A DNA stretch of 64,000 bases from Parcubacteria group bacterium GW2011_GWA2_47_26 (GTDB taxonomy: Bacteria > Patescibacteriota > Patescibacteriia > GWA2-47-26). A program made the translations under genes and the position numbers. The stretch spans positions 20,056 to 84,055 of the forward strand of contig LCOG01000002.1 in the NCBI GenBank assembly GCA_001001705.1. Reading direction: 5' to 3'. Below the pieces are notes generated by a model. The model was not told the DNA's origin. It worked only from the letters and a program-made list of their open reading frames with translations, and made no database searches. Below, piece after piece: positions 26,808-63,801 of this stretch (position 1 is the stretch's first letter; every line of letters starts with the position of its first letter).

Positions 26808-26816
26808 GGTATGCAA

Positions 26817-27020
26817 TCCCGTTAGAAGCCGCGGTCGTTGGTTTGTGGAGTAGATAATATTCATATGCAGAAAGGTCAAATGGTTTTAATAAATAACCTC
26901 GCAGGGCGGGCGACCGCGACCTGTCCCGTTAGAAGTGTTGTTCTAACGGGTAATCAATCAGGAGTCTGGGGAGTGTTCAGTATTATGGGCACTTCTAACG
27001 GGACCTGCTTCTAACGGGAT
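26817..27020. repeat. Family B element (expanded/composite) ending on the ATG of the PrgI-like gene
   Basis: ATCCCGTTAGAAGCCGCGGTCG ... GGCGACCGCGACCTGTCCCGTTAGAAGTGTTGTTCTAACGGG ... ACTTCTAACGGGACCTGCTTCTAACGGGAT|G. Confidence 0.75.
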
Positions 27021-32408: not shown

Positions 32409-34697
32409 ATGATCCGCTATAACTTATCAAGTCCAGTAAGTGCACTATCGCATATTGGCCGCACCGTGGAGACTCAACTGCGACACCTAGGAGTTCTCAC
32501 CATACAGGATCTCCTTTTTTATTTTCCGGTTCGCTACGACGATTTGCGCAATATCACCGAGATTAAAGATTTAAAAATCGGCGAAAGGGCAGTAGTGCGT
32601 GGAAAAATTGAGCTTATTCAAAGCCGCCGCAGCAAATATAGAAAGAAACTCCTTACCGAGGCCATTGTCTCTGATGCGACGGGCAGTTTAAAAATACTTT
32701 GGTTTGGCCAGCCTTGGCTAATTAAAATGTTTAAAACCGGCGATGAGCTGTATTTGGTTGGCGAAGTTAAAGACGATGGCTCCGGCGCGTATATGTCCTC
32801 GCCAAGCTATGAGCGCGCAAGCGGGCACGCGACAATTCATACGGGCCGCATTGTGCCAGTTTACGCTTTGACCGAAAAGCTTTCTCAAAAACAAGTGCGT
32901 TTTTTAATGAGTCGCGCTTTTCCGCTCGCTTCGAGCATAGTTGATTGGCTGTCTCAAGATTTGAGGACAAGATACAAATTATTGGATTTAAAACGCGCTA
33001 TTTCTTTTGTGCATTTTCCGCCGGATAATCAAAAAATGGAAGCGGCCCGGCGGCGTTTGAAATTTGATGAATTGCTGCGCTTGCAGATTTTTGCCGCTAA
33101 AGTAAAACAGGAACTCAAAAAATTACCCGCCCCGAAAGCGGTATTTAATGAGAAGGCGACAAAGCAATTTGTACAAGGCTTGCCTTTTGAGTTAACCGAG
33201 GCGCAACGCAAAGCGGCCTGGGAAATTGTCAAAGATATTAGTCGGCCGCGCCCAATGAATCGTTTGCTGGAGGGCGATGTTGGATCGGGAAAGACTGTCG
33301 TGGTTGCGATTGCGGCATTGAATGCGGTTGGTGTTTGTGACCATGTCACCGCGGCTAGTGACCTGGTCACAAACAAAGGTCAGGTGGCCATTATGGCGCC
33401 GACCGAAATTTTGGCGCGTCAACATTTCAAAACATTTTCAAAATTACTTGGACCCCATGGTGTGCAAGTAGAGTTACGCACCAGCAGTGAAAAAGGTAAA
33501 AAGGGGATTATAGACAGCAATGTAGTTGTGGGAACACATGCTTTAATACAAGACAGTGTAAAGTTCAAAGATTTGGTGCTCGCGGTTGTTGATGAACAGC
33601 ACCGTTTTGGCGTGCGTCAACGGCAAGCGCTCAAGGATAAGCGCGAGGATGGAAAAATGCCCCATCTGCTTACTTTGACCGCCACGCCAATCCCGCGTAG
33701 TTTGGCTTTAGTATTTTATGGCGATCTTGATCTCTCCGTGCTTAATGAAATGCCCAAGGGGCGGCAGAGAATTGAAACCGTGTTGGTAAGTAACGCTTCC
33801 CAACCCCCTCCTCATAAACCCACCCACCCTCCCCTTAAGTTAAGGGGAGGAGGCGAAAAAGGGACCGCCTCTAATTTTGCAAAGCAAAACTTAGAAGTGG
33901 TCCCTTTTTCGCGGGAACAGGCCTATCAATTTATCCGTACTGAAGTTGCCGCCGGCCACCAAGTCTTTTGGACATGCCCGATTATTGATCCTTCCGACAC
34001 GCTTGGTGTAAGAGCCGCGACCGAAGTATTTGAGCATTTGCGCACCGAAATTTTTTCTGATCTGCGCATTGGACTCTTACACGGGCGCATGAAGTCAAAA
34101 GAAAGAGAAAAAGTGATGGAAGCGTTTGTAGGCCCATCTTGTCATCATGAGCGTAGCGAAGGATCTCGGGATTCTTCGCCTGCGGTTCAGAATGACAGAG
34201 GACACACGATTGATATTCTCGTAGCCACGCCGGTTATTGAAGTTGGTATTGATGTGCCTAATGCTACAGTCATGGTTATTGAAGGAGCACAGCGTTTTGG
34301 CTTAGCCCAGCTTCATCAATTTCGCGGACGCGTTGGCCGGGGCGAGGCGAAATCGTATTGTTTGTTGATGGTGGAAGAAAAAGGGACCGCCTCTAATTTT
34401 GCTGCGCAAAATTTAGAAGTGGTCCCTTTTTCTGCGCGTATCAAGGCATTTTTAGAGTGCGACAATGGTTTTGAACTCGCCGAGCGCGATTTGACGCTTC
34501 GCGGTCCTGGCGATACTTATGGCATTGCCCAATCCGGTTTTCCGGAATTCAAAATCGCGAGTTTCGCGGATGTTGAAATTGCCAAAGAGGCCAAAGAAGC
34601 GGCGGAGGTGATTTTAACGCGCGATCCGGAACTTACGAACTATTCCGAGCTCAAACAGGCGATACTTGATAAAGAAGGCCGGACGCATTTAGAATAA
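32409..34697 (+). CDS. recG: ATP-dependent DNA helicase RecG carrying five in-frame palindromic elements
   Basis: Wedge domain, Walker A GDVGSGKT, DEQH box, helicase C motifs QFRGRVGR. Confidence 0.9.
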   Translation: MIRYNLSSPVSALSHIGRTVETQLRHLGVLTIQDLLFYFPVRYDDLRNITEIKDLKIGERAVVRGKIELIQSRRSKYRKKLLTEAIVSDATGSLKILWFGQPWLIKMFKTGDELYLVGEVKDDGSGAYMSSPSYERASGHATIHTGRIVPVYALTEKLSQKQVRFLMSRAFPLASSIVDWLSQDLRTRYKLLDLKRAISFVHFPPDNQKMEAARRRLKFDELLRLQIFAAKVKQELKKLPAPKAVFNEKATKQFVQGLPFELTEAQRKAAWEIVKDISRPRPMNRLLEGDVGSGKTVVVAIAALNAVGVCDHVTAASDLVTNKGQVAIMAPTEILARQHFKTFSKLLGPHGVQVELRTSSEKGKKGIIDSNVVVGTHALIQDSVKFKDLVLAVVDEQHRFGVRQRQALKDKREDGKMPHLLTLTATPIPRSLALVFYGDLDLSVLNEMPKGRQRIETVLVSNASQPPPHKPTHPPLKLRGGGEKGTASNFAKQNLEVVPFSREQAYQFIRTEVAAGHQVFWTCPIIDPSDTLGVRAATEVFEHLRTEIFSDLRIGLLHGRMKSKEREKVMEAFVGPSCHHERSEGSRDSSPAVQNDRGHTIDILVATPVIEVGIDVPNATVMVIEGAQRFGLAQLHQFRGRVGRGEAKSYCLLMVEEKGTASNFAAQNLEVVPFSARIKAFLECDNGFELAERDLTLRGPGDTYGIAQSGFPEFKIASFADVEIAKEAKEAAEVILTRDPELTNYSELKQAILDKEGRTHLE
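33337..33370. repeat. Family D short element within recG
   Basis: GTGACCATGTCACCGCGGCTAGTGACCTGGTCAC. Confidence 0.65.
33793..33854. repeat. Family E unit within recG, directly abutting a family F element
   Basis: CCCAACCCCCTCCTCATAAACCCACCCACCCTCCCCTTAAGTTAAGGGGAGGAGGCG. Confidence 0.65.
33855..33910. repeat. Family F element within recG (copy 1)
   Basis: GAAAAAGGGACCGCCTCTAATTTTGCAAAGCAAAACTTAGAAGTGGTCCCTTTTTC. Confidence 0.8.
34141..34197. repeat. Family A element (short form) within recG
   Basis: GTCATCATGAGCGTAGCGAAGGATCTCGGGATTCTTCGCCTGCGGTTCAGAATGAC. Confidence 0.8.
34376..34432. repeat. Family F element within recG (copy 2)
   Basis: GAAAAAGGGACCGCCTCTAATTTTGCTGCGCAAAATTTAGAAGTGGTCCCTTTTTCT. 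Confidence 0.8.
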
Positions 34698-34775: not shown

Positions 34776-34873
34776 GCCCAGCCGGTATATATGCCCCGTG
34801 TCAAATCATCTAATCATGACACCGAACCGTACACTTGGGTATACGGAGAGTGCCACAATATGCTTTCCAAAAC

Positions 34874-34909
34874 GTCCCGTGTTTGGCTCGATCGAGCCAA
34901 ACACGGGAC
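34874..34909. repeat. 36-bp perfect palindrome GTCCCGTGTTTGGCTCGATCGAGCCAAACACGGGAC
   Basis: Direct reading; followed by tandem GAAACGTCATAGG x2 at 34922..34950. Confidence 0.7.
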
Positions 34910-35254
34910 GAGTAGCGTTAAGGAAACGTCATAGGGAAACGTCATAGGGAACTAGGGTATAATTTTAGATGATTTAATTTATGACAATTTAATTTGTGCA
35001 CTTGACGCAGGATGGCCTGCTATTGTAGTATGTCAAAATTACCGCGTTGGTCAGGGGTTTTAAGTAAATGAGCCCCCTCACTAGCGCGGTAATAAATTAG
35101 CGTAAACACAGTGAACACATGGGCTGCCCACCCAAGCCGGGTGTTGTGCCAACCTTTTGATGGAGGAGCGGGGCGAATTAGCTGACACGATCCGCCACTA
35201 CGCGGGGGGTCACGAAGTACAAGCAACCTCGGACCGAAGAGGGGATCTGCAACA

Positions 35255-44140: not shown

Positions 44141-44218
44141 TCCATACGAAAGTACGAAATATTACGAAAGATACGAAAAATTTTCGTATCTTTCGTAGCG
44201 CAGTTTTCGTAATTTCGT

Positions 44219-45544
44219 ATGATTACTCTATTTATCTTTCTCGCCGTTCTATCTGTCCTTGTTTTTGTCCACGAATTTGGACATTTTTTTGTGGCAAAAA
44301 AGGCCCGATTGCGTGTTGATGAGTTTGGCATAGGTTTTCCTCCGCGGCTTATTGGAATCCGTAAAAAAAATGTCATCCTGAGGGAGTCCCGCGCCTGCGG
44401 GACGACGAAGGATACCGCACATAAAAGAACGGGATTCTTCACTGCGTTCAGAATGACGAATTGGGAGGTTGTTTGGGGCCACCCCGTTAGAGGTAAGACG
44501 CCAGAGGCGTCTGCCGATGCCCTCGGGCATCGGACCTCTAACGGGGTTGACCCGCACGCGGGCGGAACGCTTTATTCTATCAACCTGTTTCCTTTCGGCG
44601 GTTTTGTGAGAATCAAGGGAGAGTCTGGAAATGAGCGACTGGATCAGGATAGTTTTGCCAGCCGCGGCGCCGGAGTCAGAATTATGATTGCCGCGGCCGG
44701 AGTATTGATGAACGCGCTTTTGGCAGTGGTGCTCATTGCCGCGGGTTATAGACTAGGCTTTCCCCAAGCTATCTCGGATCAACCGTCAAAGTACGCGCAA
44801 ATCTCTGATCAGCATATTGAAGTCATGGGAGTCTTGCCAGATAGTCCCGCGGCGCAATCCGGTCTTAATGTTGGCGATCGTATTTTGGCAGTCGGTGTAG
44901 CGTCAGAGACAGCCGCTTTGCGTGAGCTTCAGAACTCCGAGGACTTTCGCAATGTTACAAAGGAGTTAGTCGGAGAGTCGGTAACGCTTGTTGTTGAATC
45001 TGATAAAGTGCGGCGAGAAATTCAAGTGACCCCTAAAATTTTAGAGCAAACTGGCAAGGCCGGAATAGGCGTGGCTATCGTTGATGCCGCAATAGTCCGC
45101 TATCCTTTATGGGTGGCATTGCCCAAAGCTTTTGAAACCGTGGGGATTTTAGCGAAAACGATTGTCGTAGCTTTTGCCGATATTGTCCGCGATGCTCTGC
45201 TTGGTCGGCCAGTTACGGCTGAACTGGCTGGTCCGGTTGGTATTGCCGTACTCACTGGTCAGGCCGCACGCATGGGTTTTGTATTTTTATTGCAATTTAT
45301 TGCGATCCTGTCCATTAACTTGGCCATTCTTAATGTTCTGCCGATTCCCGCGCTGGATGGCGGCCGCATCCTGTTTATTCTGATTGAAAAGCTAAGGCGT
45401 CGTCCTGTCGCGGTAAAAGTGGAAATGATGATTCAGCAGATCAGTTTTGTTTTGCTTCTGCTCCTGATTATTTTTGTGACCTATCGCGATCTCGGCCGCT
45501 ACGGCGGACGAATTACTGAATTTTTTAAGAACATGGTACAATAG
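44219..45544 (+). CDS. rseP: RseP-like site-2 protease (M50) with PDZ domain; adjacent in-frame family A and family C elements inside the first loop
   Basis: HEFGHF zinc motif, PDZ GLNVGDRILAVG, LDGG motif. Confidence 0.9.
   Translation: MITLFIFLAVLSVLVFVHEFGHFFVAKKARLRVDEFGIGFPPRLIGIRKKNVILRESRACGTTKDTAHKRTGFFTAFRMTNWEVVWGHPVRGKTPEASADALGHRTSNGVDPHAGGTLYSINLFPFGGFVRIKGESGNERLDQDSFASRGAGVRIMIAAAGVLMNALLAVVLIAAGYRLGFPQAISDQPSKYAQISDQHIEVMGVLPDSPAAQSGLNVGDRILAVGVASETAALRELQNSEDFRNVTKELVGESVTLVVESDKVRREIQVTPKILEQTGKAGIGVAIVDAAIVRYPLWVALPKAFETVGILAKTIVVAFADIVRDALLGRPVTAELAGPVGIAVLTGQAARMGFVFLLQFIAILSINLAILNVLPIPALDGGRILFILIEKLRRRPVAVKVEMMIQQISFVLLLLLIIFVTYRDLGRYGGRITEFFKNMVQ
44372..44457. repeat. 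Family A element within rseP (GAGGAGTCCCGC subfamily)
   Basis: GTCATCCTGAGGGAGTCCCGCGCCTGCGGGACGACGAAGGAT...GGGATTCTTCACTGCGTTCAGAATGAC. Confidence 0.8.
44478..44550. repeat. Family C-like element within rseP, directly after the family A copy
   Basis: CCACCCCGTTAGAGGTAAGACGCCAGAGGCGTCTGCCGATGCCCTCGGGCATCGGACCTCTAACGGGGTTGACC. Confidence 0.7.
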
Positions 45545-45576: not shown

Positions 45577-45654
45577 TGTCATTCTGAGCGAAGCGAAGAA
45601 TCCCGTGGAAAATGAACGGGATCCTTCACTACGCTACGCTCCGTTCAGGATGAC
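45577..45654. repeat. Family A element, intergenic rseP-pheS
   Basis: GTCATTCTGAGCGAAGCGAAGAATCCCGTGG...GGGATCCTTCACTACGCTACGCTCCGTTCAGGATGAC. Confidence 0.8.
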
Positions 45655-46828: not shown

Positions 46829-46884
46829 TGTCATCCCCGACCGCGATCGGGGATCCGTGGATTTCCGCTTTCGCGGGAATGACA
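46829..46884. repeat. Family A-like short element, intergenic pheS-pheT
   Basis: GTCATCCCCGACCGCGATCGGGGATCCGTGGATTTCCGCTTTCGCGGGAATGAC. Confidence 0.6.
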
Positions 46885-46894: not shown

Positions 46895-49609
46895 ATGAAC
46901 TTATCGGTTTCCTACAAATGGTTAAAAGAATATTTGCCCGGACTTAAGGCTGACCCGGAAGAGGTGGCGGCCAAATTGTCCCTGCATTCTTTTTCTGTTG
47001 AACGCTGGCAGAGAACGGGAGAAGGACTTAATGAGCGTATTGTGGTTGGAAAAATTAAAAAAATCGAACAACATCCCAATGCGGATAAGTTGAAAGTTGC
47101 GCATGTGCAAGTCAGTCCACAGTCGACAATCGACAGTTCACAGAAAATTGTTTGTGGCGGTACGAATATCCGCGAGGGACAGCTCGTGGCTTTGGCATTG
47201 TCGGGCGCAAAGGTGCGTTGGCACGGGGAAGGGGAGTTGATTGAACTCAAGCCCACAGAGATTCGCGGAGTCCGAAGCGAAGGCATGATTTGCGCGGCTA
47301 ATGAAATTGGTTTATTTGAAATGTTCCCGCATAAGGAGAGGGAAATTTTGGATTTAACCGCGACCGGTGCGCAAGTTGGCGTGCCGCTTGCCAAAGCGCT
47401 TGGGTTAGATGACACGATTTTTGAGGTTGAAGTAACTACCAATCGTCCTGATGCAATGGGGATAGTGGGCTTGGCAAGAGAGGTAGGGGCGATTTTTGGC
47501 GTGCCGTTGAAGTTGCCGCAGATTAAGCAGATTAAGCAGATTAAGCAGATTAAGCAGATTAAGCAGTTGGAGGTGCGCATAGAGACTTCCAAACTTTGCC
47601 CGCGCTATATCGCCGTCATGATGGAAGGCATTAAAGTAGCGCCTTCGCCTTGGTGGCTGCAGAGAAAATTAATTGCAAGCGGAATTAGGCCGATAAATAA
47701 TTTGGTGGATATTACAAACTATGTTCTTTTAGAATATGGCCAGCCGTGTCATGCGTTTGATGCGGGGAAATTGAGCGACGGAAGTGACCATGCCACTGCC
47801 GTAGGCGCAACACGTGGCCTGGTCACGGAGAGCTGTTCCATTGTAGTCCGCATGGCTAGGAAAGGAGAAAAGATTTTAGCATTGGATGGAAATACGTATG
47901 GTCTTGACGAAAATATTTTGGTGATTGCTGATGCAAAGCGACCAGTGGCGATTGCAGGAATTATGGGAGGAGAGGAAACAGGCGTACATGCAGATACAAC
48001 GCGCATTGTGTATGAGATTGCGAATTTTGATCCGATTACGGTGCGCAAGGGTGAGCATCAATTGGCGCTTACCAGTGATTCTTCCGCGCGGTTTAATAAA
48101 GGTTTGCCAGTGAAGTTATCAGAATATGCCGCGGCGAGGTTGATTGAACTAACCAAAGAGGTGGTGGGTGGTGAAGTCATGGGTGTGGTTGACAAGAAAT
48201 CTCTACGCCGTCATCCTGAATGCAGTGAAGGATCCCGTGGAAGTAAGAACGGGATTCCTCGCGGAGTGCAACCCCGCACCGAACTCCGTTCTGGTGCGTG
48301 GGCTCGGAATGACAAGCTAGTTGTAGCTGTGTCTCCGCAAGATGTGGCGCAAAACATCGGCATTGATATTCCAAGAGCGCAAATGAAAAAATATCTTACT
48401 GCTTTAGGATTTAAGGTTAGCGGTTCAGCTAAAAAATGGTCAGTTGCGTTTCCTTACTGGCGCACAGTTGAGGCTGATGGAGTGGCTGATATCTCTGAAG
48501 AAGTAGCGCGGATGTATGGGTATCATAATCTGCCAAGTGTTTTGCCAGCAGGCACTTTGCCAGACGAGGCGCCCAATCCGGATTTTGCCCATGAGCAAAC
48601 AGTCAAAGATATACTGCGCGGCGCAGGCTTTACCGAGTTATATACTTACTCATTTGTCTCATCTGACGATATAATCAAAGCTGGCCTTGACGCAGGTGAG
48701 GACGCCGCAGCAATTGCTAATCCGCTCACTTCGGAGCTTACGCACATGCGGCCATGGCTTGGCATTTCTATATTGCGCGCGATTGAGAAAAATCAGACGA
48801 TGGCTGATGTGCTTAAGTTTTTTGAATTATCAAATGAATACCATCCCCGTCATAGCGGTCATTCCGAGCCCGCGCACCAGAGCGAAGCTCGGTGCGGGGT
48901 TTTACTCCGCGAGGAATCCCGTGCTTTACAGAACGGGATCCTTCGTCGCATTGCTCCTCAGGATGACACTGCGTGTCAACTGCCTGAAGAACGTCAAAAA
49001 CTTATCGTGGCGGGAGCGGGCAAGGAAGAACACGACGGAGAAAATTTTTATATTATAAAAGGTTTAGCCGAATATTTGGCCGTAACTCTAGGCTTGCCAA
49101 AATTGAGCTTTGTGCCAGCCCCAAAAAGCTCCGCGCTGTATAAATGGTTCCATCCGGCGCGGGTTATATGGTGTAAAGCAGGCGAAGATTTTCTGGGCCC
49201 GTTGGGCGAGGCGCACCCGACACTGCTTAAGGCCTTTGGCATCACGCGCCGTGTGGCTTTTCTAGACTGGGAAATTAAAGCGCTTTTTCCCTTGATTGGC
49301 AAAGGGCGTGTCTATAAATCTCCTCTAGCATATCCGCCAGTCAAACGCGATGTTGCGTTTATTGTGTCTAAATCTGTACAATATGCAAGTATCTTGGAGA
49401 CTATAGTAAAGCTTGATCCACTGATTTATGAAGTTGAGCTTTTTGACCAATACGAAGGCAAAGGCGTACCTGCGGATTCCAGAAGTTTAGCTTTTCACAT
49501 AACCTATGCCAGTTATGAACGCACCCTGACTGCGGAAGAAGCAGAACGTGTGCATGACAAGCTCACGAAAATTTTAAAGGAAAAATTTGACGCAAAAGTG
49601 CGCGAGTAA
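46895..49609 (+). CDS. pheT: Phenylalanyl-tRNA synthetase beta subunit (tandem QIK repeat, family D and two family A elements in frame)
   Basis: N-terminal tRNA-binding OB fold, B3/B4, FDX-ACB C-terminal domain. Confidence 0.9.
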   Translation: MNLSVSYKWLKEYLPGLKADPEEVAAKLSLHSFSVERWQRTGEGLNERIVVGKIKKIEQHPNADKLKVAHVQVSPQSTIDSSQKIVCGGTNIREGQLVALALSGAKVRWHGEGELIELKPTEIRGVRSEGMICAANEIGLFEMFPHKEREILDLTATGAQVGVPLAKALGLDDTIFEVEVTTNRPDAMGIVGLAREVGAIFGVPLKLPQIKQIKQIKQIKQIKQLEVRIETSKLCPRYIAVMMEGIKVAPSPWWLQRKLIASGIRPINNLVDITNYVLLEYGQPCHAFDAGKLSDGSDHATAVGATRGLVTESCSIVVRMARKGEKILALDGNTYGLDENILVIADAKRPVAIAGIMGGEETGVHADTTRIVYEIANFDPITVRKGEHQLALTSDSSARFNKGLPVKLSEYAAARLIELTKEVVGGEVMGVVDKKSLRRHPECSEGSRGSKNGIPRGVQPRTELRSGAWARNDKLVVAVSPQDVAQNIGIDIPRAQMKKYLTALGFKVSGSAKKWSVAFPYWRTVEADGVADISEEVARMYGYHNLPSVLPAGTLPDEAPNPDFAHEQTVKDILRGAGFTELYTYSFVSSDDIIKAGLDAGEDAAAIANPLTSELTHMRPWLGISILRAIEKNQTMADVLKFFELSNEYHPRHSGHSEPAHQSEARCGVLLREESRALQNGILRRIAPQDDTACQLPEERQKLIVAGAGKEEHDGENFYIIKGLAEYLAVTLGLPKLSFVPAPKSSALYKWFHPARVIWCKAGEDFLGPLGEAHPTLLKAFGITRRVAFLDWEIKALFPLIGKGRVYKSPLAYPPVKRDVAFIVSKSVQYASILETIVKLDPLIYEVELFDQYEGKGVPADSRSLAFHITYASYERTLTAEEAERVHDKLTKILKEKFDAKVRE
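47518..47566 (+). repeat. Tandem 9-nt repeat (CAGATTAAG x5) inside pheT encoding QIKQIKQIKQIKQIK
   Basis: Direct reading of sequence; motif shared with family H hairpins. Confidence 0.85.
47784..47826. repeat. Family D element within pheT
   Basis: GTGACCATGCCACTGCCGTAGGCGCAACACGTGGCCTGGTCAC. Confidence 0.75.
48210..48313. repeat. Family A element within pheT (copy 1)
   Basis: GTCATCCTGAATGCAGTGAAGGATCCCGTGG...GGGATTCCTCGCGGAG...CGGAATGAC. Confidence 0.75.
48859..48968. repeat. Family A element within pheT (copy 2)
   Basis: GTCATTCCGAGCCCGCGCACCAGAGCGAAGCTCGG...GGGATCCTTCGTCGCATTGCTCCTCAGGATGAC. Confidence 0.7.
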
Positions 49610-50807: not shown

Positions 50808-50845
50808 AGCAGATTAAGCAATTGCTTACTCTGCCTAATCTGCTA
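50808..50845. repeat. Family H hairpin AAGCAGATTAAGCAATTGCTTACTCTGCCTAATCTGCT after rplJ
   Basis: AGCAGATTAG/CTAATCTGCT stem. Confidence 0.6.
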
Positions 50846-50862
50846 ATTCACTAATCAAAAGT

Positions 50863-52479: not shown

Positions 52480-52872
52480 ATGCTAGATAACGAAGTCACC
52501 AACAATGAAATCATGGAGTTTCTAAAAGAAACAGTAGCGACCAAAGAAGATCTTAAAGCCTTCGCCACGAAAGATGATCTTAAATCTTTTGCCACCAAGG
52601 AGGATCTGAAGGCCTTTGCGACCAAAGAAGATTTGAAAGCCTTTGCCACGAAGGAGGATTTGTACAGGGCCAAAGACGAGATTTTAGCGCGTTTGGCAGA
52701 ATTTCAGTTTGAGCTTGAAGAGATTAAAAAACGGCTGGAGAAAATTGAAAAGACGCTTAAGGAAGATACAGATGCACTAGTTATGGAGGTAGAACAATTG
52801 AAAGAACGGGTTGCAGTATTAGAAGTGCATCTTGGAATTCAAAAAATGGCCGCAGTAAGCAATAATTTATAG
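52480..52872 (+). CDS. Hypothetical coiled-coil protein with five ATKEDLKAF tandem repeats
   Basis: 27-nt tandem coding repeats. Confidence 0.5.
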   Translation: MLDNEVTNNEIMEFLKETVATKEDLKAFATKDDLKSFATKEDLKAFATKEDLKAFATKEDLYRAKDEILARLAEFQFELEEIKKRLEKIEKTLKEDTDALVMEVEQLKERVAVLEVHLGIQKMAAVSNNL

Positions 52873-55480: not shown

Positions 55481-55595
55481 ATGGAAAAAATTATATTCGG
55501 CAACAGTCCCATTAAGACAAGACGAAGCAAGCTCTAAAACTCTCGTTCCGAAATTGACACGATCGTGTCAATTTCGGGATAGCCTGCGGGACCGA

Positions 55596-55666: not shown

Positions 55667-57967
55667 CTATTTTTTCAGGTGGGGCATTGTGAAAGATATA
55701 ACGTCAGCGCCTCTTAGTATGTACGCGATTTTCTGCCCTTCGTTTATCGCAAAGTCTTTGAGGTTAGTGAAAGTTTGGCTTGTATATTGCGCTTTTAGTG
55801 TGCCATTATCTTTGTTAAAAACAACGAGTCGATTTCCGCTCTGGTTTAATATGTAAAGATATTGTGAGGCTTCGTTAGTCCACAGTTTCGTGGCTTGCGT
55901 AAGCACCGGGTCAATATTTTTAAGCGCAAAATTTGTTTTTAGACCTTTGCGAAATTCTGTTACATTGCCTGATTCATCAAGAACATAGGCTGTGCCGTCC
56001 ACCGTCAGCGCCAAAGCAGTGTTAATTGCGGTTCTATCTTTTATCCAGGCCGCGCCGGAGTTAAAACCCTGCGCCATGGGCTCGTACTTATAAATCTGAT
56101 TCTCACTCGGGTGCAATGTATAAAGCCGACGATTGTATATGGTCGCATCGCGCGCTCCACTGCGTAGTGTTCTAGGTTCACCTAGCTTATTCTCTGCGTA
56201 ATTATAAATATAAGCTCTGTCACTGTTAATTAATAGGAGTGCGTTACGCTGGGGATGAGCAAGCATTACGTTCAATGCGGTTATATTTTCTGGTGTAAAT
56301 TTTTGTGTTACATTATTTTGCGACCAGACTAACGCATTTGTGCTATAAGCAAAAAGCGCATTATCTTTCAAAAAAATCCCTTTGGCCTCTGGCAGTAGCT
56401 CGCGAAGATCAAGTACTGTTGTTGGATTTTCTATAACGATAATGTGGCGCAGCCGTTCTTCTACGCCCTGCAAGGCAGCAACCAACATGCTGGTTTCGTT
56501 TTCGTCTGCCGCTGATTTTAAATAACGCAAAGGAATATTTGCCGTTACTTGTCTTTTAAACGCGGATAAATTTTGCAAGCGCGCTTTTGCTTCTTCAATT
56601 TGCAAGCGCGCTTGTTCCTCGTTATTGTAAATTAGTGATGCGCTCGCCGTATCTATTAGGGTTTGTATGCCCGTAATCTCGGTTTGCAGTTGATTTTCTG
56701 CCGATCTTATTATCCCTCTGCGGTTGGCAAAAAGCACGCTCTCGCTAAAAACGAAAATTAGGGTAAGAAGGGCAATGAAGATTATTTTGCTTTTAAGCGA
56801 AAGGCCGTTGAATTTATTGGCTAGATAGTTTACTTTTGTTCTGAAAAGAAAGAGCAGTTTCTGTTTGAGCAGTTTCATGTCTGTAGCGCGCGCAAACCGC
56901 GCCAAAATTTTCTGGCGAAAACTTGTGTTGGCAATTGAAACACGTGTCCTTTGTATAATCTGCGCCGCCTTTTGCGGGTATTTGGCAAGGCGGATAAAAT
57001 ACGAAGATATTGTTCTATGTTTTAAGGGTGTCGTTGGAATAGGTGGAGCCGTTGTAGCTATGGCTTTACGCGTCTCTTTAATTGGAATGGCTATTGTGTT
57101 TTTAATAGTCTTTAATTTATTCCCGAATTTATTATTAAAGTGATCAAAAAAAACTGTCAAGGTTTTCTGGGTTTGATGTACAGAGGCTTGTATTGATTGT
57201 AGAAATGGTTTTAAAAGCGGCGGCGAGAGCATTTCTTCAGTGCGAGCTTCGGTTTTAAGCAGAGTAGCGATAGATGACCCCGTTGATTCAGTTGGGCGCA
57301 GAACTTGCGGTTTTGCCTCCAATAAAACAGCCCGGAAAATTGGCGGCTGTACATTCCGCGTTTCAATGCTTCGCCTAATAGAGGCGAGTTTATTTTCGGA
57401 ACTGCGTGAACGCGCGATCTCTTTTAAGTCGTTGGATTTTAAAAGGGGAGACAGATGTTTGGAAACCACAAGCAGATAAGCATGCGGCGCCAAAACTCCA
57501 TTATGAAAATTGCTGAAATGAAGCGGCCCGCTTGCCCCCATTTCTCCAAAATTGCTGATTGCATTGCCGCTGACGTGGAGTACGGCTATCTCGCCGGAGC
57601 TCGTGAAAAACAATTGTGTTCCCGAAACGATGCCAAGACTGGCATGGATGCGCGGCAGGTCGTGGGCTCGTTCTTTAATTTTATTTTCAAAAATGGCAAG
57701 TTTTTTTTCAAAAAATTGTTCGGCTTGTGTACGATCTACTGGAATATACTCAAAAGCCGTTGCCAGACGCAAAGCGTAGTCAAAGAGATCGTTGGCCGCT
57801 TCGCGATCTTGTGAGGATAGTGCCTCCAGCTCGGCGTCGTTGAAACCGAAAAGTCCAAAGAATTGAGTCTCCGTTGAGAATTTTCCGCGGCGCACTACCG
57901 ACGTCCACGCCGAGAAGGCGCGATGGTGTATTGTGGTCTCAATGTGGATAGTTAATCTTTGGTTCAT
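55667..57967 (-). CDS. Hypothetical bitopic membrane protein (766 aa)
   Basis: Long ORF with central TM; start codon abuts a family B element. Confidence 0.5.
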   Translation of the reverse strand: MNQRLTIHIETTIHHRAFSAWTSVVRRGKFSTETQFFGLFGFNDAELEALSSQDREAANDLFDYALRLATAFEYIPVDRTQAEQFFEKKLAIFENKIKERAHDLPRIHASLGIVSGTQLFFTSSGEIAVLHVSGNAISNFGEMGASGPLHFSNFHNGVLAPHAYLLVVSKHLSPLLKSNDLKEIARSRSSENKLASIRRSIETRNVQPPIFRAVLLEAKPQVLRPTESTGSSIATLLKTEARTEEMLSPPLLKPFLQSIQASVHQTQKTLTVFFDHFNNKFGNKLKTIKNTIAIPIKETRKAIATTAPPIPTTPLKHRTISSYFIRLAKYPQKAAQIIQRTRVSIANTSFRQKILARFARATDMKLLKQKLLFLFRTKVNYLANKFNGLSLKSKIIFIALLTLIFVFSESVLFANRRGIIRSAENQLQTEITGIQTLIDTASASLIYNNEEQARLQIEEAKARLQNLSAFKRQVTANIPLRYLKSAADENETSMLVAALQGVEERLRHIIVIENPTTVLDLRELLPEAKGIFLKDNALFAYSTNALVWSQNNVTQKFTPENITALNVMLAHPQRNALLLINSDRAYIYNYAENKLGEPRTLRSGARDATIYNRRLYTLHPSENQIYKYEPMAQGFNSGAAWIKDRTAINTALALTVDGTAYVLDESGNVTEFRKGLKTNFALKNIDPVLTQATKLWTNEASQYLYILNQSGNRLVVFNKDNGTLKAQYTSQTFTNLKDFAINEGQKIAYILRGADVISFTMPHLKK

Positions 57968-58075
57968 CCCGTTAGAAGTTTAAGAATAATTTTCTTTTAA
58001 GTACCCGCTAGACGTCAGTCGGCTTCGCCTACTGTTTTTCGTATACGAATGTCGTGCTTAAACTTCTAACGGGAT
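57966..58075. repeat. Family B-like divergent element abutting the start codon of the minus-strand 766-aa gene
   Basis: CAT|CCCGTTAGAAGTT ... CTTAAACTTCTAACGGGAT; reverse complement reads CTTCTAACGGGATGAAC exactly as at nifS. Confidence 0.6.
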
Positions 58076-58130: not shown

Positions 58131-58766
58131 ATGCGCAAGCGCGCGTCACTCGAACAAATTTTTGGCTCAAGGGTCCGTGTGAGACTGCTCAAGCTTTTTT
58201 TAGAGCATCCCGATGATCGTTTCTATGTCCGTGAGATAACGCGGCTGACACGGTCGCATATTCATTCAGTACGGCGCGAACTTGCGAATCTGTCCAAGGT
58301 TGGACTGGTGCGGATTTACATTGATAAAAATGCAAACGGCGGCATTACTTACAAAAACAGCGCAAATAATTTACAGCGCAAATATTATGAAGTTAATCCC
58401 GAGTGTGTAATTTTTAACGAGCTACGATTACTGTTAATCAAAGGACAGCTTTTGCTCCAAGAAGAACTTGCGAGGCAACTGTCTGCGGCGGGCGCGGTTA
58501 ATTACTTAGCCTTGACTGGATTTTTTGCCGATCTTCAAGGATTGCCAACTGATCTGCTTTTAATAGGCCGCGTTAGTAAAAAGAAATGCGCGAAATCAAT
58601 AGAAGATTTTGAAGAAGAATTCGGGCGCACCATTAATTATACGATTTTGACCTTGAAAGAATTTTTGGAGCGCAAGGAAATGACCGATCGCTTTCTTTAT
58701 ACGCTGCTGGAGTCAAAAAAAATTGTTCTTGTAGATAAACTGCCCGTCTCGTCGCGCATTGGCTGA
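58131..58766 (+). CDS. Putative winged-helix transcriptional regulator
   Basis: N-terminal wHTH-like region (VRVRLLKLFLEHPDDRFYVREITRLT). Confidence 0.4.
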   Translation: MRKRASLEQIFGSRVRVRLLKLFLEHPDDRFYVREITRLTRSHIHSVRRELANLSKVGLVRIYIDKNANGGITYKNSANNLQRKYYEVNPECVIFNELRLLLIKGQLLLQEELARQLSAAGAVNYLALTGFFADLQGLPTDLLLIGRVSKKKCAKSIEDFEEEFGRTINYTILTLKEFLERKEMTDRFLYTLLESKKIVLVDKLPVSSRIG

Positions 58767-58781: not shown

Positions 58782-58933
58782 GTCATTCTGAGGAGTCCCG
58801 CAGGCGCGGGACGACGAAGAATTTCGCACGAATCCCGTTAGAGATCGCGGACGCAGTCCGCGTCCTATCTCTAAACGGGACGAATGTGCGGAATCTCGCA
58901 TACGCGAGAGATCCTTCACTGCGTTCAGGATGA
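58782..58933. repeat. Composite element: family A termini enclosing a CCGTTAGAG...CTCTAAACGG hairpin (family C-like)
   Basis: GTCATTCTGAGGAGTCCCGCAGGCGCGGGACGACGAAGAAT...CCCGTTAGAGATCGCGGACGCAGTCCGCGTCCTATCTCTAAACGGGACG...GATCCTTCACTGCGTTCAGGATGAC. Confidence 0.7.
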
Positions 58934-58942
58934 CTACTAATT

Positions 58943-59260
58943 ATGTCCACCACTACCTTACAAATTGTGATTAAAAATAAACGCGCCTTGCTTAAAAGTG
59001 GCGTAAAAAAAATAGAGTTCAACTTGGATGAGAAGCCATTGCTATGGGGTATTGCTAAAATGCTCCGCCGCCTCCGCGACTTACAAGGTTTGAGTGTAGA
59101 CATGGAAGAAACGTCTTTTAGTGGAACTCGCGAGGCAGTCGCCGTGGTTAATACCATAGCTTGGGCGCTCAAAATAAAAGTCAACGGGCAGGCGCAACTC
59201 CGACCGACTTATCAGCGTGAGCCCAATATTACCAAACCCAAACATGACACCACGCACTAA
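58943..59260 (+). CDS. Hypothetical protein
   Basis: ORF only. Confidence 0.35.
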   Translation: MSTTTLQIVIKNKRALLKSGVKKIEFNLDEKPLLWGIAKMLRRLRDLQGLSVDMEETSFSGTREAVAVVNTIAWALKIKVNGQAQLRPTYQREPNITKPKHDTTH

Positions 59261-60770: not shown

Positions 60771-62707
60771 CAAAAGTACGTTCATCTCGGCGAAAATTAT
60801 TCTACGCCGTTATCGTATTTACGGTTTTAACTCTGTCCGTGTTAGCGGTTTTTTCTTACAGTTCGCTAAATAGCGCGCGAATAAATGTTCTCGCCGCAAA
60901 GAATGCCGCTCTGTCTGCCAAAGATGCCTTGCTTACAGAACGCGATCCCCGCGCTGCACAAAACTTTTTAAATGAGTCAAAAAAATATTTTGATGAAGCC
61001 GCGTTTAAGATACAGCGCGTGCGTTTTCTCAAATTTGTTCCATGGGTTGGTGCGCAATGGAAAGCCGTGGATGCTGGCCTGCGCGCCGCCTCAATAGCCT
61101 CGGGCGCTCTTTCCAAGGCCGCGGCTCTCGGGGCAGATATTTTAGGGCCATTGGCTCGCTTGGAAAATGTGCAGATCGGCGAGATTCCAATTGCGGAGCG
61201 CCAGCGAATTTTGAAAAATATGTTTGAAAGCGCGCCGCAGATGACTGGCATTAAAGCCGAGATTGAACTTTCCCGATATCTCATTGATTCTGCGCTGCGG
61301 CCCGGGGTTTTGCCAGTAGTCCGCGAAAATTTGGATTTACTGCGCGGCAACCTGAATACAGTGCAAACGGTTTTAGAAGACAGCGCTGCGCTTGTCCATT
61401 TCGCGCCGCTCTTTCTCGGTTATGCCAGTCCAAAAACTTATCTTTTTGTGCTTGAAAATAGCGACGAGCTTCGGCCAACAGGCGGTTTTATCGGAACCTA
61501 TGGCCTGCTCACTCTTGAAGCAGGGCATATTGCCAATTTTTTTACTGATGATGTTTACAACCTAGATCGTTTTGCGCCGGGAGCAAAACGTCCGCCGTCC
61601 CCGCCGGAATTGCAGCAATATTTGCAGCAGCCGCGTTTTTATTTGCGCGATGCCAATTGGGCGCCGGATTTTCGCGAATCAGCAAAAACAATTTTGCAAT
61701 TTTATAAAGATGAGGCGATGTATGTTAGGAACCCTCCGTCCTCCGTCCTCCGTCCTTCGTCATCCGAACTTGACGGTGTCATTGCCGTCATGCCCTCGGC
61801 TATTAAGCCGTTATTTGAATTAACAGGACCTATTACTGTAGAAGGCCAAACCTTTACCGCTCAAAATTTAACCGAGGCCCTGGAATTTGAAGTGGAGATT
61901 GGTTTTCAGGAGCGCGCTATCCCGCGGCCGCAACGCAAAGCTATAATTGCCGAGCTTACCCGCGCTTTGATTGCTAAGATTTTTGCTCTCCCATGCTCAA
62001 AGTGGCCGCAAGTCCTGCATATCTTGCGCATGGCCTTGGACGAAAAACACATTTTGCTTTATGCTAATGACCCTGTAGCCCATGGAATTATTGAGGAAGA
62101 AAATTGGGCCGGCAGTATAAGCGCGGCAGGCGGAGACTATTTGGCGATTTTTGACGCCAACATGTTTGCCCTGAAAACCGATCCTTACATTGAGCGCGCG
62201 ATTTTCTACAATGTTAGTAAAGAAAATGACGCGTTTATTGGAAACGCGGAAATAGTTTATAGTTATCCAAAAGCCGGGCCGGCTTGGAAGACCAAAGGTT
62301 ATCGAACATACACCCGCGTTTATGTGCCGCAGGGCAGTGTGCTTTTGGAATCCTCGGGCGCCATGAAAGAAGAAGGCTCGCGAGAGTCCGGTCAAGTAAA
62401 AATAGGACAGGAATACGATAAAACCGTCTTCGGCGCATTTCTGGCGGTACAAGTTGGCGAAGTTAAACGGTTGAGATTTAAATACCGCTTGCCCGATAGT
62501 GTGGCCGAGATAATTAATGCGGGCGCTTATTCCTTGCAAGTTCAAAAACAGCCCGGGACGCTCGGACACACTTTGACAACGGTAGTTGATACTGATAAGA
62601 TACCCCAGTCCTGGAGTCCGACTGGCCTTAACGTTAGTCGTGATGGCTCACGGTTGAATTGGCAGACCAGTTTGCGGAAGGATCAAGAGTTTAGAATTCA
62701 GCTCTAA
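60767..62707 (+). CDS. DUF4012-like secreted protein
   Basis: ELRPTGGFIGTYG motif characteristic of DUF4012; N-terminal TM anchor. Confidence 0.55.
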   Translation: MTKVRSSRRKLFYAVIVFTVLTLSVLAVFSYSSLNSARINVLAAKNAALSAKDALLTERDPRAAQNFLNESKKYFDEAAFKIQRVRFLKFVPWVGAQWKAVDAGLRAASIASGALSKAAALGADILGPLARLENVQIGEIPIAERQRILKNMFESAPQMTGIKAEIELSRYLIDSALRPGVLPVVRENLDLLRGNLNTVQTVLEDSAALVHFAPLFLGYASPKTYLFVLENSDELRPTGGFIGTYGLLTLEAGHIANFFTDDVYNLDRFAPGAKRPPSPPELQQYLQQPRFYLRDANWAPDFRESAKTILQFYKDEAMYVRNPPSSVLRPSSSELDGVIAVMPSAIKPLFELTGPITVEGQTFTAQNLTEALEFEVEIGFQERAIPRPQRKAIIAELTRALIAKIFALPCSKWPQVLHILRMALDEKHILLYANDPVAHGIIEEENWAGSISAAGGDYLAIFDANMFALKTDPYIERAIFYNVSKENDAFIGNAEIVYSYPKAGPAWKTKGYRTYTRVYVPQGSVLLESSGAMKEEGSRESGQVKIGQEYDKTVFGAFLAVQVGEVKRLRFKYRLPDSVAEIINAGAYSLQVQKQPGTLGHTLTTVVDTDKIPQSWSPTGLNVSRDGSRLNWQTSLRKDQEFRIQL

Positions 62708-62793
62708 GCAGATTAAGTACTAAGCAGAGTAAGCAATTGTTGATTGCCTAATCTGCTTACTCTGCCTAATCTGCTTACTCTGCCTAATCTGCT
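62706..62793. repeat. Family H repeat cluster (AGCAGATTAAG / CTTACTCTGCCTAATCTG x3) between DUF4012 gene and mreB
   Basis: Three tandem CTGCTTACTCTGCCTAAT units plus the inverted AGCAGATTAAG. Confidence 0.6.
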
Positions 62794-63801
62794 ATGTTTA
62801 TCAAAAAAATCGGCATTGATCTAGGCACGACAAATGTGCGTGTTTATGTTCCAAAAAAGGGGATTATTATCAATGAGCCCTCGGTTGTAGCCATCTCTAC
62901 CCTGGACAAGAAAATTTTAGCTGTAGGAAGGGACGCCAAAGAAATGTTGGGACGCACCCCCGATACGATTGTCGCTTCTCGGCCAATGAAAGACGGAGTC
63001 ATTGCGGATTACAAAACAACCGAGGCCATGCTCCGTTATTTCATCAACAAAGCTTTGGGTGGCGTTAAACTATTTCGCCCCGAAGTCATGGTCGCGGTTC
63101 CCGGCGGCATAACTTCAACCGAACGCCGTGCCGTTATTGACGCAACAATTGCGGCTGGCGCCAAAGCCGCCTACATTATTAAAGAGCCGATTGTCGCCGC
63201 GATTGGGGCGGATATTCCAATTGGCAGTCCTTCTGGTTATATGATTATTGAAATTGGCGGCGGAACCATGGAAGCCGCGGTGCTTTCCTTGGGTGGAATT
63301 GTCTCGTCGGCCTCGGTGCGCGTGGGCGGCAATCGTTTGGATGCGGCCATTGCTGAACATGTGCGGCGAAGGTACAATGTTGCGGTAGGTGAGCGCACGG
63401 CCGAGGATATAAAAATACAAATCGGTTCCGCGCTTTATTTAAATGATCAGCTTTCCATGGAAGTCACAGGTAGGGATATGATTCAAGGTTTGCCCAAGAG
63501 GATTACGGTTACCTCGCACGATGTTACTGAAGCCATTGGCAACGCGCTGGAGCAAATGGTTACAACCATTAAAGAAGTTTTGCACGAAACTCCGCCCGAA
63601 CTTTCCGCGGATGTCATGGAAAAAGGCATGGTCGTCTCCGGCGGAACATCCCAACTGCGCAATTTAGCCGAATTATTTTCCGAAGCAACCGGCGTTCCGG
63701 CTATGGTCGCGGAAGAACCCGCGCTATGCGTAGCAAAAGGCACCGGCGTTGCGCTTGAAAACCTGGAGTCCTACAAACGCAGCATCCTCGCCTCGCGGTA
63801 A
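62794..63801 (+). CDS. mreB: Rod shape-determining protein MreB
   Basis: IGIDLGTTN phosphate-1 motif, actin fold motifs. Confidence 0.9.
   Translation: MFIKKIGIDLGTTNVRVYVPKKGIIINEPSVVAISTLDKKILAVGRDAKEMLGRTPDTIVASRPMKDGVIADYKTTEAMLRYFINKALGGVKLFRPEVMVAVPGGITSTERRAVIDATIAAGAKAAYIIKEPIVAAIGADIPIGSPSGYMIIEIGGGTMEAAVLSLGGIVSSASVRVGGNRLDAAIAEHVRRRYNVAVGERTAEDIKIQIGSALYLNDQLSMEVTGRDMIQGLPKRITVTSHDVTEAIGNALEQMVTTIKEVLHETPPELSADVMEKGMVVSGGTSQLRNLAELFSEATGVPAMVAEEPALCVAKGTGVALENLESYKRSILASR

Follow-up and report, generated by a model that had tools for sequence, protein, structure and literature searches.

Small hairpin repeats are a known kind of selfish DNA, and in the genome considered here they are unusually dense inside essential genes. 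REPs are extragenic by definition. In Rickettsia, several families of palindromic elements (RPE) lie in frame within unrelated housekeeping genes that stay unbroken, according to the account of Ogata et al. (2000) given in PMC10969869. A second described system is that of Ssn, GIY-YIG nucleases that are single-strand-specific and bind and cut NTS/SRM repeats as ssDNA (Chenal 2025, PMC11893778). The Ssn nuclease is 94 aa long, and the published layout is NTS-gene-NTS. The repeats, of which CGTCATTCCCGCGMAVGCGGGAATC is an NTS example, include the dRS3/NIME of Neisseria, where the NTS/Ssn pair modulates transformation (PMC11893778). The published SRM string, HGTCWYN(0-2)YYVSBRHN(0-5)WNVSBRGN(0-2)RNCYNB, was derived from 29 genomes in 4 phyla (PMC11893778).

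The host is a groundwater Parcubacteria/Uhrbacteria-like CPR bacterium with a genome that is 88 % coding. In the window, i.e. the whole 64-kb stretch of DNA that was analysed, 43 small non-coding palindromic repeats of at least six families were catalogued, and about 29 of these lie fully inside long ORFs, in frame, the ORFs staying open. The genes concerned include ligA, uvrD, recG, pheS, pheT, murI, prmC and rseP; insertion status was checked against orthologues for rseP, murI, pheS and recG. Intragenic copies of family A use only the two TGA-free phases (five in phase 0, four in phase 1, none in phase 2), and the intergenic copies have stops in most frames. Rfam searches at gathering and permissive thresholds returned just three tRNAs and chance miRNA-like hairpin matches, with no family over any element. 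Full-text literature searches gave nothing relevant for the family A arm sequence, nor for palindromic elements or MITEs combined with CPR terms. The features discussed below are listed in Table 1.

Table 1. Positions of the host gene, the elements and the native stretch between two of them, numbered from the first letter of the window
Feature	Position	Strand	Details
rseP (site-2 / M50 zinc metalloprotease), host gene	44219..45544	+	ORF, Pfam, orthologue alignment, structure match
Family A element, 86 nt	44372..44457	+	GTCATCCTGAG...TTCAGAATGAC; in frame, residues 52-80 (VILRESRACGTTKDTAHKRTGFFTAFRMT)
Native rseP stretch between the two elements	44458..44480	+	Orthologue alignment, structure prediction
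Family C element, 67 nt	44481..44547	+	In frame, residues 88-110 (HPVRGKTPEASADALGHRTSNGV)
Intergenic family A copy, rseP-pheS spacer	45578..45654	+	Spacer 143 nt here, 10-16 nt in L125 and L126
Solo hairpin, pheS-pheT spacer	46829..46858	+	TGTCATCCCCGACCGCGATCGGGGATCCGT; sole window site fitting the published SRM string
C/B-type element, 110 nt, divergent promoter region upstream of ORF 58131-58766	57966..58075	+	L128 and L129 lack it
Family A element, 153 nt, spacer between ORFs 58131-58766 and 58943-59260	58782..58934	+	Intact ends
C-type hairpin (family D19), 46 nt, in the tip of the central hairpin of the preceding element	58834..58879	+	CCCGTTAGAG...CTCTAAACGGG
Second nested case: C/B-type element carrying another C-type copy (26923-27004)	26816..27020	+	CCTG/CCTG flanks the inner copy

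Two elements in the RseP loop

The rseP ORF is unbroken and encodes 441 aa with both the HEFGH and the LDGG motif. Pfam places Peptidase_M50 and PDZ domains on a public protein identical to the product, which matches the solved RseP structures 7W6Y/7W6X. The inserts fall in a length-variable beta-hairpin loop after the HExxH helix; this product has 68 residues there, against 4 at the equivalent place in solved RseP.

In the family A copy, two GTCAT-hairpin-ATC arms (expanded left arm, 44372–44415; right arm, 44433–44457) stand in inverted orientation around a central stem loop. The family C copy has a 14-bp terminal stem, ACCCCGTTAGAGGT / ACCTCTAACGGGGT, within which lie small hairpins at 44497–44511 and 44514–44533. 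Folded as DNA it reaches −35.1 kcal/mol (z = −9.4), and its flanks hold no direct repeat. A preliminary description of this DNA had placed both copies in rseP as one composite unit with a spacer of about 20 nt, adding some 60 residues. Both copies are present, within 1–3 nt of where they had been put (44478–44550 for the family C copy). The supposed spacer, however, encodes NWEVVWG, aligns with RRKIVWG of the orthologues with an empty site and is predicted to form a beta strand. Because the stretch between them is native coding sequence, the two copies are separate in-frame insertions. The net gain is about 53 residues, the empty-site orthologues being 387–388 aa long.

Most orthologues have neither copy. 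The family A copy is missing in 15 of 17 aligned orthologues, and the family C copy in all of them apart from those of the same population; L003 carries A alone, and A with C occurs only in this population. In the rseP tree, L003 clusters with the empty P0007 and P0010 in 300 of 300 bootstrap replicates and the window sequence branches elsewhere, so that a family A copy sits at the identical nucleotide of rseP in two non-sister lineages. The protein collection searched contained no rseP relative at 58 to 96 % identity, the range from which the insertions might have been dated. In the AlphaFold model, pLDDT is below 50 exactly at residues 52–79 and 88–115 and 75–90 elsewhere, and the inserted peptides are predicted to be disordered. 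Peptides that span the insert junctions include ...IRKKNVILRESR and WGHPVRGK.

Nested copies and the gene junctions that hold them

A family A element with intact ends enclosing a B/C-type hairpin had also been reported, as had the occurrence of one family A subfamily, recognized by its inner arm, at both loci. Both observations were borne out, with the outer element ending at 58934 rather than 58933. The two copies have the same expanded left arm with its loop inverted: GAG(G)AGTCCCGC-NNNN-GCGGGACGACGAAG is found in both, the 4-nt loop being GCCT in one and its reverse complement, AGGC, in the other. A further small hairpin lies at 58895–58908.

The nested C-type hairpin is bordered by direct repeats of ACGAAT at 58828–58833 and 58880–58885, and excision of the hairpin together with one ACGAAT rebuilds the hairpin TTCGCAC-GAAT-GTGCGGAA. 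Since the flanks match and removal restores the central hairpin of the family A copy, nesting by insertion is supported. In the second nested case, given for comparison, the intact homologue at 16804–16922 has a single CCTG.

Relatives lack the spacer in which the nested element lies. At this junction L128 (86 % identical) has a stop codon 2 nt from the next start and in L129 (70 % identical) the two genes overlap by 4 nt; both relatives are without the A copy and without the C-type hairpin, and in no relative was the C-type hairpin found alone. Spacers elsewhere also differ, those of rseP-pheS and pheS-pheT in L125 and L126 being empty or occupied by a different family.

Nature of families A and C/B

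On sequence and folding, family A appears to be of the NTS/SRM type, with the GTCAT-hairpin-ATC unit as its arm, and not special to this genome. The arms have the features of that unit, namely a 5′ GTC(A/T)(C/T) lead, a hairpin and (A/G)NC(C/T), oriented and self-folding. Each arm folds alone as ....(((((..((...))..)))))..., with the register of the Neisseria NTS, and pair 6 covaries among 536 arms (T-A 256, C-G 206, G-C 38). A fixed orientation of the element was considered as the cause of mispairing between family A ends and was rejected, as each arm pairs within itself and the arms carry different covarying pairs.

A search of the window for the 25-nt arm pattern gave 12 matches, compared with 0.00 in 100 shuffles. 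The arm occurs in at least 120 genome stretches from most bacterial phyla, across which it is almost invariant, and in other phyla paired arms enclose arbitrary cores of 60–150 nt or a whole gene. Small GIY-YIG ORFs in loci of other genomes selected by the arm lie between or beside arms in four of four cases; their products are 93–98 aa with GIY-YIG as the sole Pfam match. Conversely, around 80 metagenomic GIY-YIG genes an arm was found within 200 nt upstream in 63/79, downstream in 68/78 and on both sides in 54/77, the background being 0.23 arms per kb. Given this shared architecture, and given arms on both sides of a GIY-YIG gene in the manner of an IS, the family A copies are best explained as derivatives of the Ssn system that have no gene. 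The published SRM string fits none of the family A arms in the window, where it has one match (Table 1) against 0.32 in shuffles; this lowers the claim of strict membership, not that of shared architecture. Flanks of the A copies have no consistent target duplication, just a tendency to T/GTCAT...ATGAC/A.

Family C, in its sequence features, behaves like a MITE. Copies of C/B end in (T)CCCGTTAGARG (C-type ends are also written TCCCGTTAGAAGC), have a variable core and contain no ORF. There are eight in the window, or nine with the inner nested one, of 46–205 nt, and among 1.1 Mb examined the family C termini are confined to Uhrbacteria-like loci. Flush direct repeats of 4–6 nt occur at four of nine copies (the eight of the window and one in L126): ACGAAT at 58834, CCTG at 26923, TGCAA at 26816 and TGAA in L126. 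Half of the copies are without one, among them those in rseP, at 16804 and at 57966. To our knowledge, no parent IS with family C/B ends is known.

Age, competing readings and relation to known systems

The preliminary description had taken the arrangements as a sign of recent, repeated insertion and perhaps of ongoing activity. That insertion was repeated and lineage-specific holds, because the sites are empty in relatives, including the 86 % relative beside the nested copy; its recency is not supported. Copies of family A in the window are 43–81 % identical to each other with no near-identical pair. Among population assemblies at 99.5–100 % identity, the rseP site is covered in three and the nested site in its full length in four, all with identical arrangements; a fifth contig breaks off within the left arm of the 58782 copy. 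The strain comparison that the description had proposed thus yielded no assembly without either arrangement; the only structural differences found among assemblies are deletions of 48 nt in rseP, at a distance from the elements, and of 7 nt in a glycosyltransferase gene, and an indel of 105 nt beside a P-type element. An assembly artefact is ruled out, as both loci are reproduced by independent assemblies. The search for empty sites that it had also proposed did succeed, at rseP and at the nested spacer (86 and 70 % relatives), and no divergent relative has an identical nested arrangement, which would have spoken for an ancient, fixed one.

Some sites are nonetheless shared with relatives as distant as 70 % identity, which also speaks against ongoing activity. 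Elements of family P in murI and pheS and of family A in recG are common to the window and L127, in host proteins 70–75 % identical. These elements are 82–84 % identical against 40–46 % at third codon positions of the host genes, a conservation above silent sites that would not be expected if old insertions simply decayed neutrally. Sequence conservation is unable to date the elements, because the family A arm is almost invariant across phyla.

The reading that is probably correct is that rseP received two independent insertions, of a gene-less derivative of an Ssn system (A) and of a MITE-like element (C), and that nesting and adjacency arise mainly from the small number of tolerated sites. 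The two elements would have entered independently on either side of a native 7-codon strand of the RseP loop, both in stop-free frames and presumably translated, contributing disordered loops of about 29 and about 22 residues. At 58782–58934 the A copy would have entered the gene junction first and the C-type hairpin would then have entered the tip of its central hairpin, duplicating ACGAAT. Room for 50–150 extra bases would exist in variable surface loops, at gene junctions and within the elements themselves, and hairpin elements may in addition prefer hairpin tips. Adjacent pairs (gap ≤25 nt) number three against 0.76 expected under random placement (P = 0.03), in a test that leaves out the two nested cases. 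Shared target preference is a possible cause of this adjacency, and few tolerated sites in an 88 %-coding genome explain the weak clustering at least as well. Translation of the inserts and tolerance of the added peptides are presumed. We only infer mobilization in trans, of family A by an Ssn-type nuclease and of family C by a transposase, since neither an ssn-like or other GIY-YIG gene nor a transposase with matching ends was found in the 64 kb or in the relatives examined (Uhrbacteria loci L125–L129, about 70 kb).

A burst of transposition that is recent or still under way, with elements homing on one another or on common hairpin and loop targets, would account for the A copy at one rseP nucleotide in two non-sister lineages, for the pheS-pheT spacer and a recG loop being occupied by different families in different lineages, for a nested C-type copy exactly in a hairpin tip with a target duplication, for the three adjacent pairs and for sites empty in the 86 % relative. 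It is nevertheless unlikely: young pairs of A copies and presence/absence polymorphism at either locus are both lacking, no autonomous partner is in view, and the adjacency excess is small and to be expected anyway if a few per cent of positions tolerate inserts. Homologous recombination of short patches, e.g. by natural transformation, could instead have spread filled alleles (element plus flanks) with no need of fresh insertion. The A copy of L003 came with about 27 nt of replaced flank resembling that of the window, which hints at recombination rather than clean insertion: L003 has IRKKS-[A]-GWE in place of FQRINGRRK, like IRKKN-[A]-NWE in the window, yet immediately downstream it is 100 % identical to its sister L126, and both filled alleles have an A7–8 run 5′ of the element. 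Against this, the flanks resemble each other chiefly as protein (left flank, 11/18 nt), the two copies have different apical modules in their left arms and no donor was found, and such spread is regarded as improbable.

That the inserts are ancient, fixed and functional, selected as protein loops or as DNA/RNA hairpins (regulators, terminators, nuclease sites) rather than carried as selfish passengers, is suggested by the conservation of the sites shared with L127 and by the effect of the NTS/Ssn pair on transformation in Neisseria (PMC11893778). The closest relatives of a filled lineage are empty, however, the A and C composite is unique to one population, and the inserted peptides are predicted to be disordered, with internal modules that differ between copies. 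Conservation of the arm is uninformative about the host gene, because the family shows it in all phyla, and a functional origin is quite unlikely. The solo unit at 46829–46858, the arbitrary cores or whole genes between paired arms in other phyla and the layout NTS-gene-NTS (PMC11893778) raise the question of whether family A is unitary at all; single GTCAT-hairpin units may have been seeded separately, two of them bracketing a pre-existing C-type hairpin at 58782, with no nesting by insertion. The ACGAAT repeats inside the central stem, the restoration of that stem on removal, the absence of both elements from L128 and L129 and the absence from all relatives of a C-type hairpin standing alone make this decidedly doubtful.

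The composite and nested arrangement is by itself ordinary in a repeat-rich genome. On the favoured reading of two independent insertions, what matters is that a repeat in a CPR genome is tied to the Ssn nucleases and their hairpin repeats, a system whose biochemistry is known, and that such repeats are not restricted to intergenic DNA, most copies being in DNA ligase, helicases, tRNA synthetases and a membrane protease (translation presumed). In CPR annotation, repeat elements may lie behind many of the unexplained insertions and ‘CPR-specific’ loops of conserved proteins. The peptides VILSEAKD, CHPERSEGS, PPLNLRG and PVRG...SNGV would then flag repeat DNA and not protein motifs. The copies also offer a natural survey of the loops in essential proteins that can take up 20–30 extra residues. 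It is conceivable, though doubtful, that in-frame palindromic elements of host-dependent, reduced-genome bacteria in general (in CPR, and in Rickettsia and Wolbachia in the literature) are products of Ssn-type GIY-YIG nucleases and hairpin repeats, reaching the same nucleotides repeatedly in separate lineages through structure-directed ssDNA insertion or patch recombination. If so, the unexplained RPE phenomenon would gain an enzyme and the loop extension of essential proteins would be a systematic process and not a curiosity.

Like MITEs, family C/B has conserved TIRs, a variable core, no coding capacity and many copies, and it inserts into other elements; it differs in a duplication of inconsistent length, missing at the rseP copy, and in that the DNA examined holds no parent IS with C/B ends. 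With REP/BIME and their RAYT (IS200/IS605-like), family A shares short hairpin units, inverted pairs, a lack of target duplication and a link to a small hairpin- and ssDNA-specific nuclease flanked by the repeats, whereas the RAYT enzyme is a Y1 HUH transposase and not a GIY-YIG nuclease. The likeness to NTS/SRM extends to the GTCAT, hairpin and ATC unit, to single units and inverted pairs, to multiple copies in many phyla and, in other genomes, to a GIY-YIG gene of about 94 aa flanked on both sides. Differences are an arm hairpin of CYTGA-GCGAAGC-GAAGR, or expanded versions of it, that is off the published string, 8 of 11 A copies inside ORFs against 2 % reported for N. meningitidis (PMC11893778), a CPR host, a group unmentioned in PMC11893778, and an ssn gene not seen in this 64 kb. 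RPE, in the account of PMC10969869, resemble the present elements in that several palindromic families are inserted in frame in housekeeping genes, adding loop peptides, in a reduced-genome, host-dependent bacterium. The elements here belong to another phylum, measure 56–153 nt against about 150 nt for RPE (PMC10969869), and are denser, with 29 intragenic copies in 64 kb and with adjacent and nested copies. Because the host is a CPR bacterium, their relation to RPE is at most that of an analogue.

Composite and nested elements

The rseP gene of the window (ORF 44219–45544) is a full-length 441-aa protease of the M50/RseP type and holds one family A and one family C copy, the latter folding as single-stranded DNA at -35.1 kcal/mol (z = -9.4). 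The bases separating the copies encode NWEVVWG, which in an alignment of 17 orthologues is the conserved native RRKIVWG; thus, two insertions lie either side of a native strand. Orthologues with empty sites are 387–388 aa long, and the gain to rseP is therefore approximately 53 residues. Against the solved Kangiella RseP (7W6Y), 68 residues stand where there are 4, between the FGxGF and GTxY...PxGG strands and after the HExxH helix, in a loop that varies from 0 to ~60 extra residues among orthologues. In an AlphaFold model, pLDDT is <50 exactly at residues 52–79 and 88–115, with a short strand between these segments and a confident remaining fold.

The murI–rseP spacer (44143–44221) is a 79-nt palindrome of TACGAAA heptamers holding a 17-bp perfect hairpin (44163–44197); the orthologous spacer of locus L003 contains nothing similar. 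The P0001 assembly, near-identical and from the same population, has a 48-nt in-frame rseP deletion that removes 16 residues of a transmembrane helix. At locus L004 (1515–1621), likewise near-identical and of this population, there are 105 nt extra beside a P-type element, the window (35839) being without the rest of the element and a spacer. Either difference may be genuine variation or may come from how repeats were assembled.

At the second locus a family A copy encloses a C-type hairpin, as in the preliminary description, and the composite and nested arrangement is upheld by the sequence at both loci. The two A copies have the expanded inner arm GAG(G)AGTCCCGC-loop-GCGGGACGACGAAG, with a 4-nt loop of GCCT in one and its reverse complement, AGGC, in the other. 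When the C-type copy at 58834 and one ACGAAT are taken out, the hairpin TTCGCAC-GAAT-GTGCGGAA re-forms at the centre of the A copy. In L128, an 86 % relative, only 2 nt lie between the orthologous genes flanking this site, and in L129, a 70 % relative, these genes share a 4-nt overlap; the upstream C/B-type element (57966–58075) is absent in both. The sequence ATGACTACTAA (58929–58939) joins the final 5 nt of the A copy to 6 nt of flanking DNA and matches L128 1447–1457 exactly, where the downstream gene begins at the unoccupied site; in the window, the downstream ORF begins at 58943, a shift of 14 nt. The ATGAC that ends the A copy may derive from the target.

In the 1.1 Mb compared, the family C ends, (T)CCCGTTAGARG, are confined to this population and the Uhrbacteria locus L126. 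The core may be as short as a 24-nt hairpin or as long as 180 nt, then A+T-rich; all long forms are intergenic. Flush direct repeats bound several C copies (see table) and are absent at the rseP C copy and three others. On our analysis, family C would be a MITE, lacking only a known parent.

Composite, nested and gene-associated elements (window coordinates unless a locus is named)
Feature	Position	Remarks
Family A copy in rseP	44372–44457	Starts GTCATCCTGAG, ends TTCAGAATGAC
Family C copy in rseP	44481–44547	14-bp stem around two small hairpins
Enclosing family A copy	58782–58934	
C-type hairpin nested in this A copy	58834–58879	CCCGTTAGAG...CTCTAAACGGG; flush direct repeat ACGAAT/ACGAAT
Further small hairpin in this A copy	58895–58908	
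Family C copy, nested	26923–27004	Flush direct repeat CCTG/CCTG; single CCTG in intact homologue
Family C copy; additional nested pair	26816–27020	Flush direct repeat TGCAA/TGCAA
Family C copy in L126		Flush direct repeat TGAA/TGAA
Adjacent pair A + D20	3257–3413	Pseudopilin-like ORF (N_methyl motif); 68-nt D20 element 12 nt after A copy
Adjacent pair P + T	33815–33912	
GIY-YIG unit with family A arms	L007 7067–7405	
GIY-YIG unit with family A arms	L033 6137–6601	
GIY-YIG unit with family A arms	L105 4081–4533	
GIY-YIG unit with family A arms	L017 3370–3860	

Palindromic families across the window

The window (G+C 46.8 %, ~88 % coding) contains at least six palindromic families, and Rfam holds no family for any of their elements. 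The 43 catalogued copies make up ~5 % of the DNA; 29 lie wholly within long ORFs and keep the reading frames open. Their hosts include genes for NAD-dependent DNA ligase, a UvrD-type helicase, RecG, PheS, PheT, a class-V aminotransferase, PrmC, MurI, prepilin peptidase and RseP. Intragenic A copies are distributed 5, 4 and 0 by phase, only the two TGA-free phases being used; intergenic A copies have stops in most frames.

Several other repeats were observed. A second D20 copy (7457–7524) is 88 % identical to that of the A + D20 pair. One permissive loop of recG (window 33759–34694) carries a T-type element in the window and another insert at that position in L127 (2–652), and is empty in L126 (2–1228), giving different families in different lineages. 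The tRNA-Asn (13576–13648) lies within an 18-bp perfect inverted repeat (13565–13657) that lengthens the acceptor stem by 11 bp each side, and which may be a processing stem or a palindromic element with a captured tRNA. Loop-less perfect palindromes of 30–38 bp, with no sequence relationship to family A or C, are found intergenically at 16403–16440, 25301–25332, 34873–34910 and 55548–55577. Within pheT, a 9-nt tandem repeat, GCAGATTAA, is present in frame in 6 copies (47509–47575), and related TAATCTGCT/TACTCTGCC repeats occupy two spacers (50808–50849; 62705–62798). A 27-nt tandem repeat occurs in 4 copies at 52537–52659.

Repeated gain, age and placement

The closest relatives of the window are Candidatus Uhrbacteria. 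NCBI assembly GCA_001001845.1 and a Rifle groundwater metagenome each contain an RseP protein identical to its own, and a neighbouring protein bears the public source name Parcubacteria group bacterium GW2011_GWC2_45_7.

Neither element is present at the rseP site in 15 of the 17 aligned orthologues. P0001 has both A and C; in L003 rseP (58 % identical), an A copy with another apical module occupies the same nucleotide position, and there is no C copy. In a loop-masked neighbour-joining tree, L003 clusters with P0007 and P0010, both empty, in 300/300 bootstrap replicates and the window branches apart. The A copy has therefore either come twice or moved by recombination. L003 and L126 DNA are 78 % identical overall and 100 % identical just past the insert site, and ~27 nt of the L003 flank are replaced, IRKKS-[A]-GWE resembling IRKKN-[A]-NWE of the window, a hint that the A copy may have moved by recombination. 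The rseP–pheS spacer is 143 nt with an A copy in the window versus 10–16 nt in L125 and L126, and the pheS–pheT spacer is occupied by a solo SRM (a hairpin repeat of the Ssn nucleases) in the window and by a C/B-type element in L126, and is empty in L125.

Sites empty in relatives, and filled differently between lineages, bear out the preliminary description as regards repeated insertion. Its suggestion of recent or ongoing activity is not borne out: P in murI, P in pheS and A in recG are common to the window and L127, at a host-protein identity of 70–75 %; the A copies of the window share just 43–81 % identity with each other; and neither arrangement differs among population assemblies, drawn from at least four samples. 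The rseP arrangement is the same in all assemblies covering the site (n=3), as is the nested arrangement in all four spanning the whole locus, a fifth contig ending inside the left arm. At shared sites the elements are 82–84 % identical versus 40–46 % for third codon positions of host genes; the arms are near-invariant across phyla, and element conservation is thus unusable as a clock.

Target preference had also been proposed from elements lying beside or inside each other. The clustering is weak, with 3 adjacent pairs in the window versus 0.76 expected from random placement (P = 0.03). Such clustering would be expected in a compact genome where added DNA is tolerated only in variable loops, at gene junctions and within the elements themselves. 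Hairpin tips or single-stranded DNA may nevertheless be genuinely preferred targets, and recurrence at the same site is consistent with this.

Family A arms and GIY-YIG nucleases

The 25-nt family A arm pattern is matched 12 times in the window and never in shuffles. When each species was represented by one genome, arms were found in at least 120 genome stretches, the matches listed including Nitrospirota, Bacteroidota, Chloroflexota, Acidobacteriota, Firmicutes, Planctomycetota, Omnitrophota, Proteobacteria, Saccharibacteria, Gracilibacteria and others. Cores between these arms are 10 to 150 nt, and the GCGAAGC hairpin within the arm is often swapped for a longer one, likewise in the window. 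Each arm folds on itself, with a GTC lead and a stem starting AT(C/T)C and finishing G(A/G)AT; position 6 and its partner covary inside the arm (536 arms; T-A 256, C-G 206, G-C 38, few mismatches). Because pairing and covariation are within each arm, the two ends of one A element are often unmatched.

Small GIY-YIG ORFs in the arm-selected loci number four (one decayed), all between or beside arms, with no others there. These units are tiny and IS-like, a 93–98-aa GIY-YIG gene lying between arms or having arms on both sides, and are hosted by Saccharibacteria, Gracilibacteria and two other genomes; the L017 copy has a decayed N-terminus. Conversely, in 80 metagenomic loci chosen by GIY-YIG protein alone, arms lie ≤200 nt from the gene upstream in 63/79, downstream in 68/78 and on both sides in 54/77, over a background of 0.23 per kb.

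These elements are of interest for how densely they occur within essential genes and for a possible link to an enzyme, rather than for the composite or nested arrangement per se. A literature search found no description of such elements in CPR bacteria. The intragenic, in-frame habit seen here is that of Rickettsia palindromic elements (RPEs). Ssn nucleases are single-domain GIY-YIG enzymes of ~94 aa that bind hairpin repeats (NTS, CGTCATTCCCGCGMAVGCGGGAATC; generally SRM) and cut the single-stranded DNA form only; the repeats flank the Ssn gene in an IS-like manner, and NTS are inside genes in only 2 % of cases (PMC11893778, which mentions neither CPR bacteria nor RPEs). The arm–GIY-YIG gene–arm layout of the loci above is the arrangement published for Ssn (PMC11893778). 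Family A arms have the same GTCAT...ATC frame as NTS/SRM, yet fail the degenerate SRM string of PMC11893778, which fits one site in the window, the solo hairpin at 46829–46858. Family A would work like the NTS/SRM repeats of Ssn nucleases, of which it would most simply be a variant.
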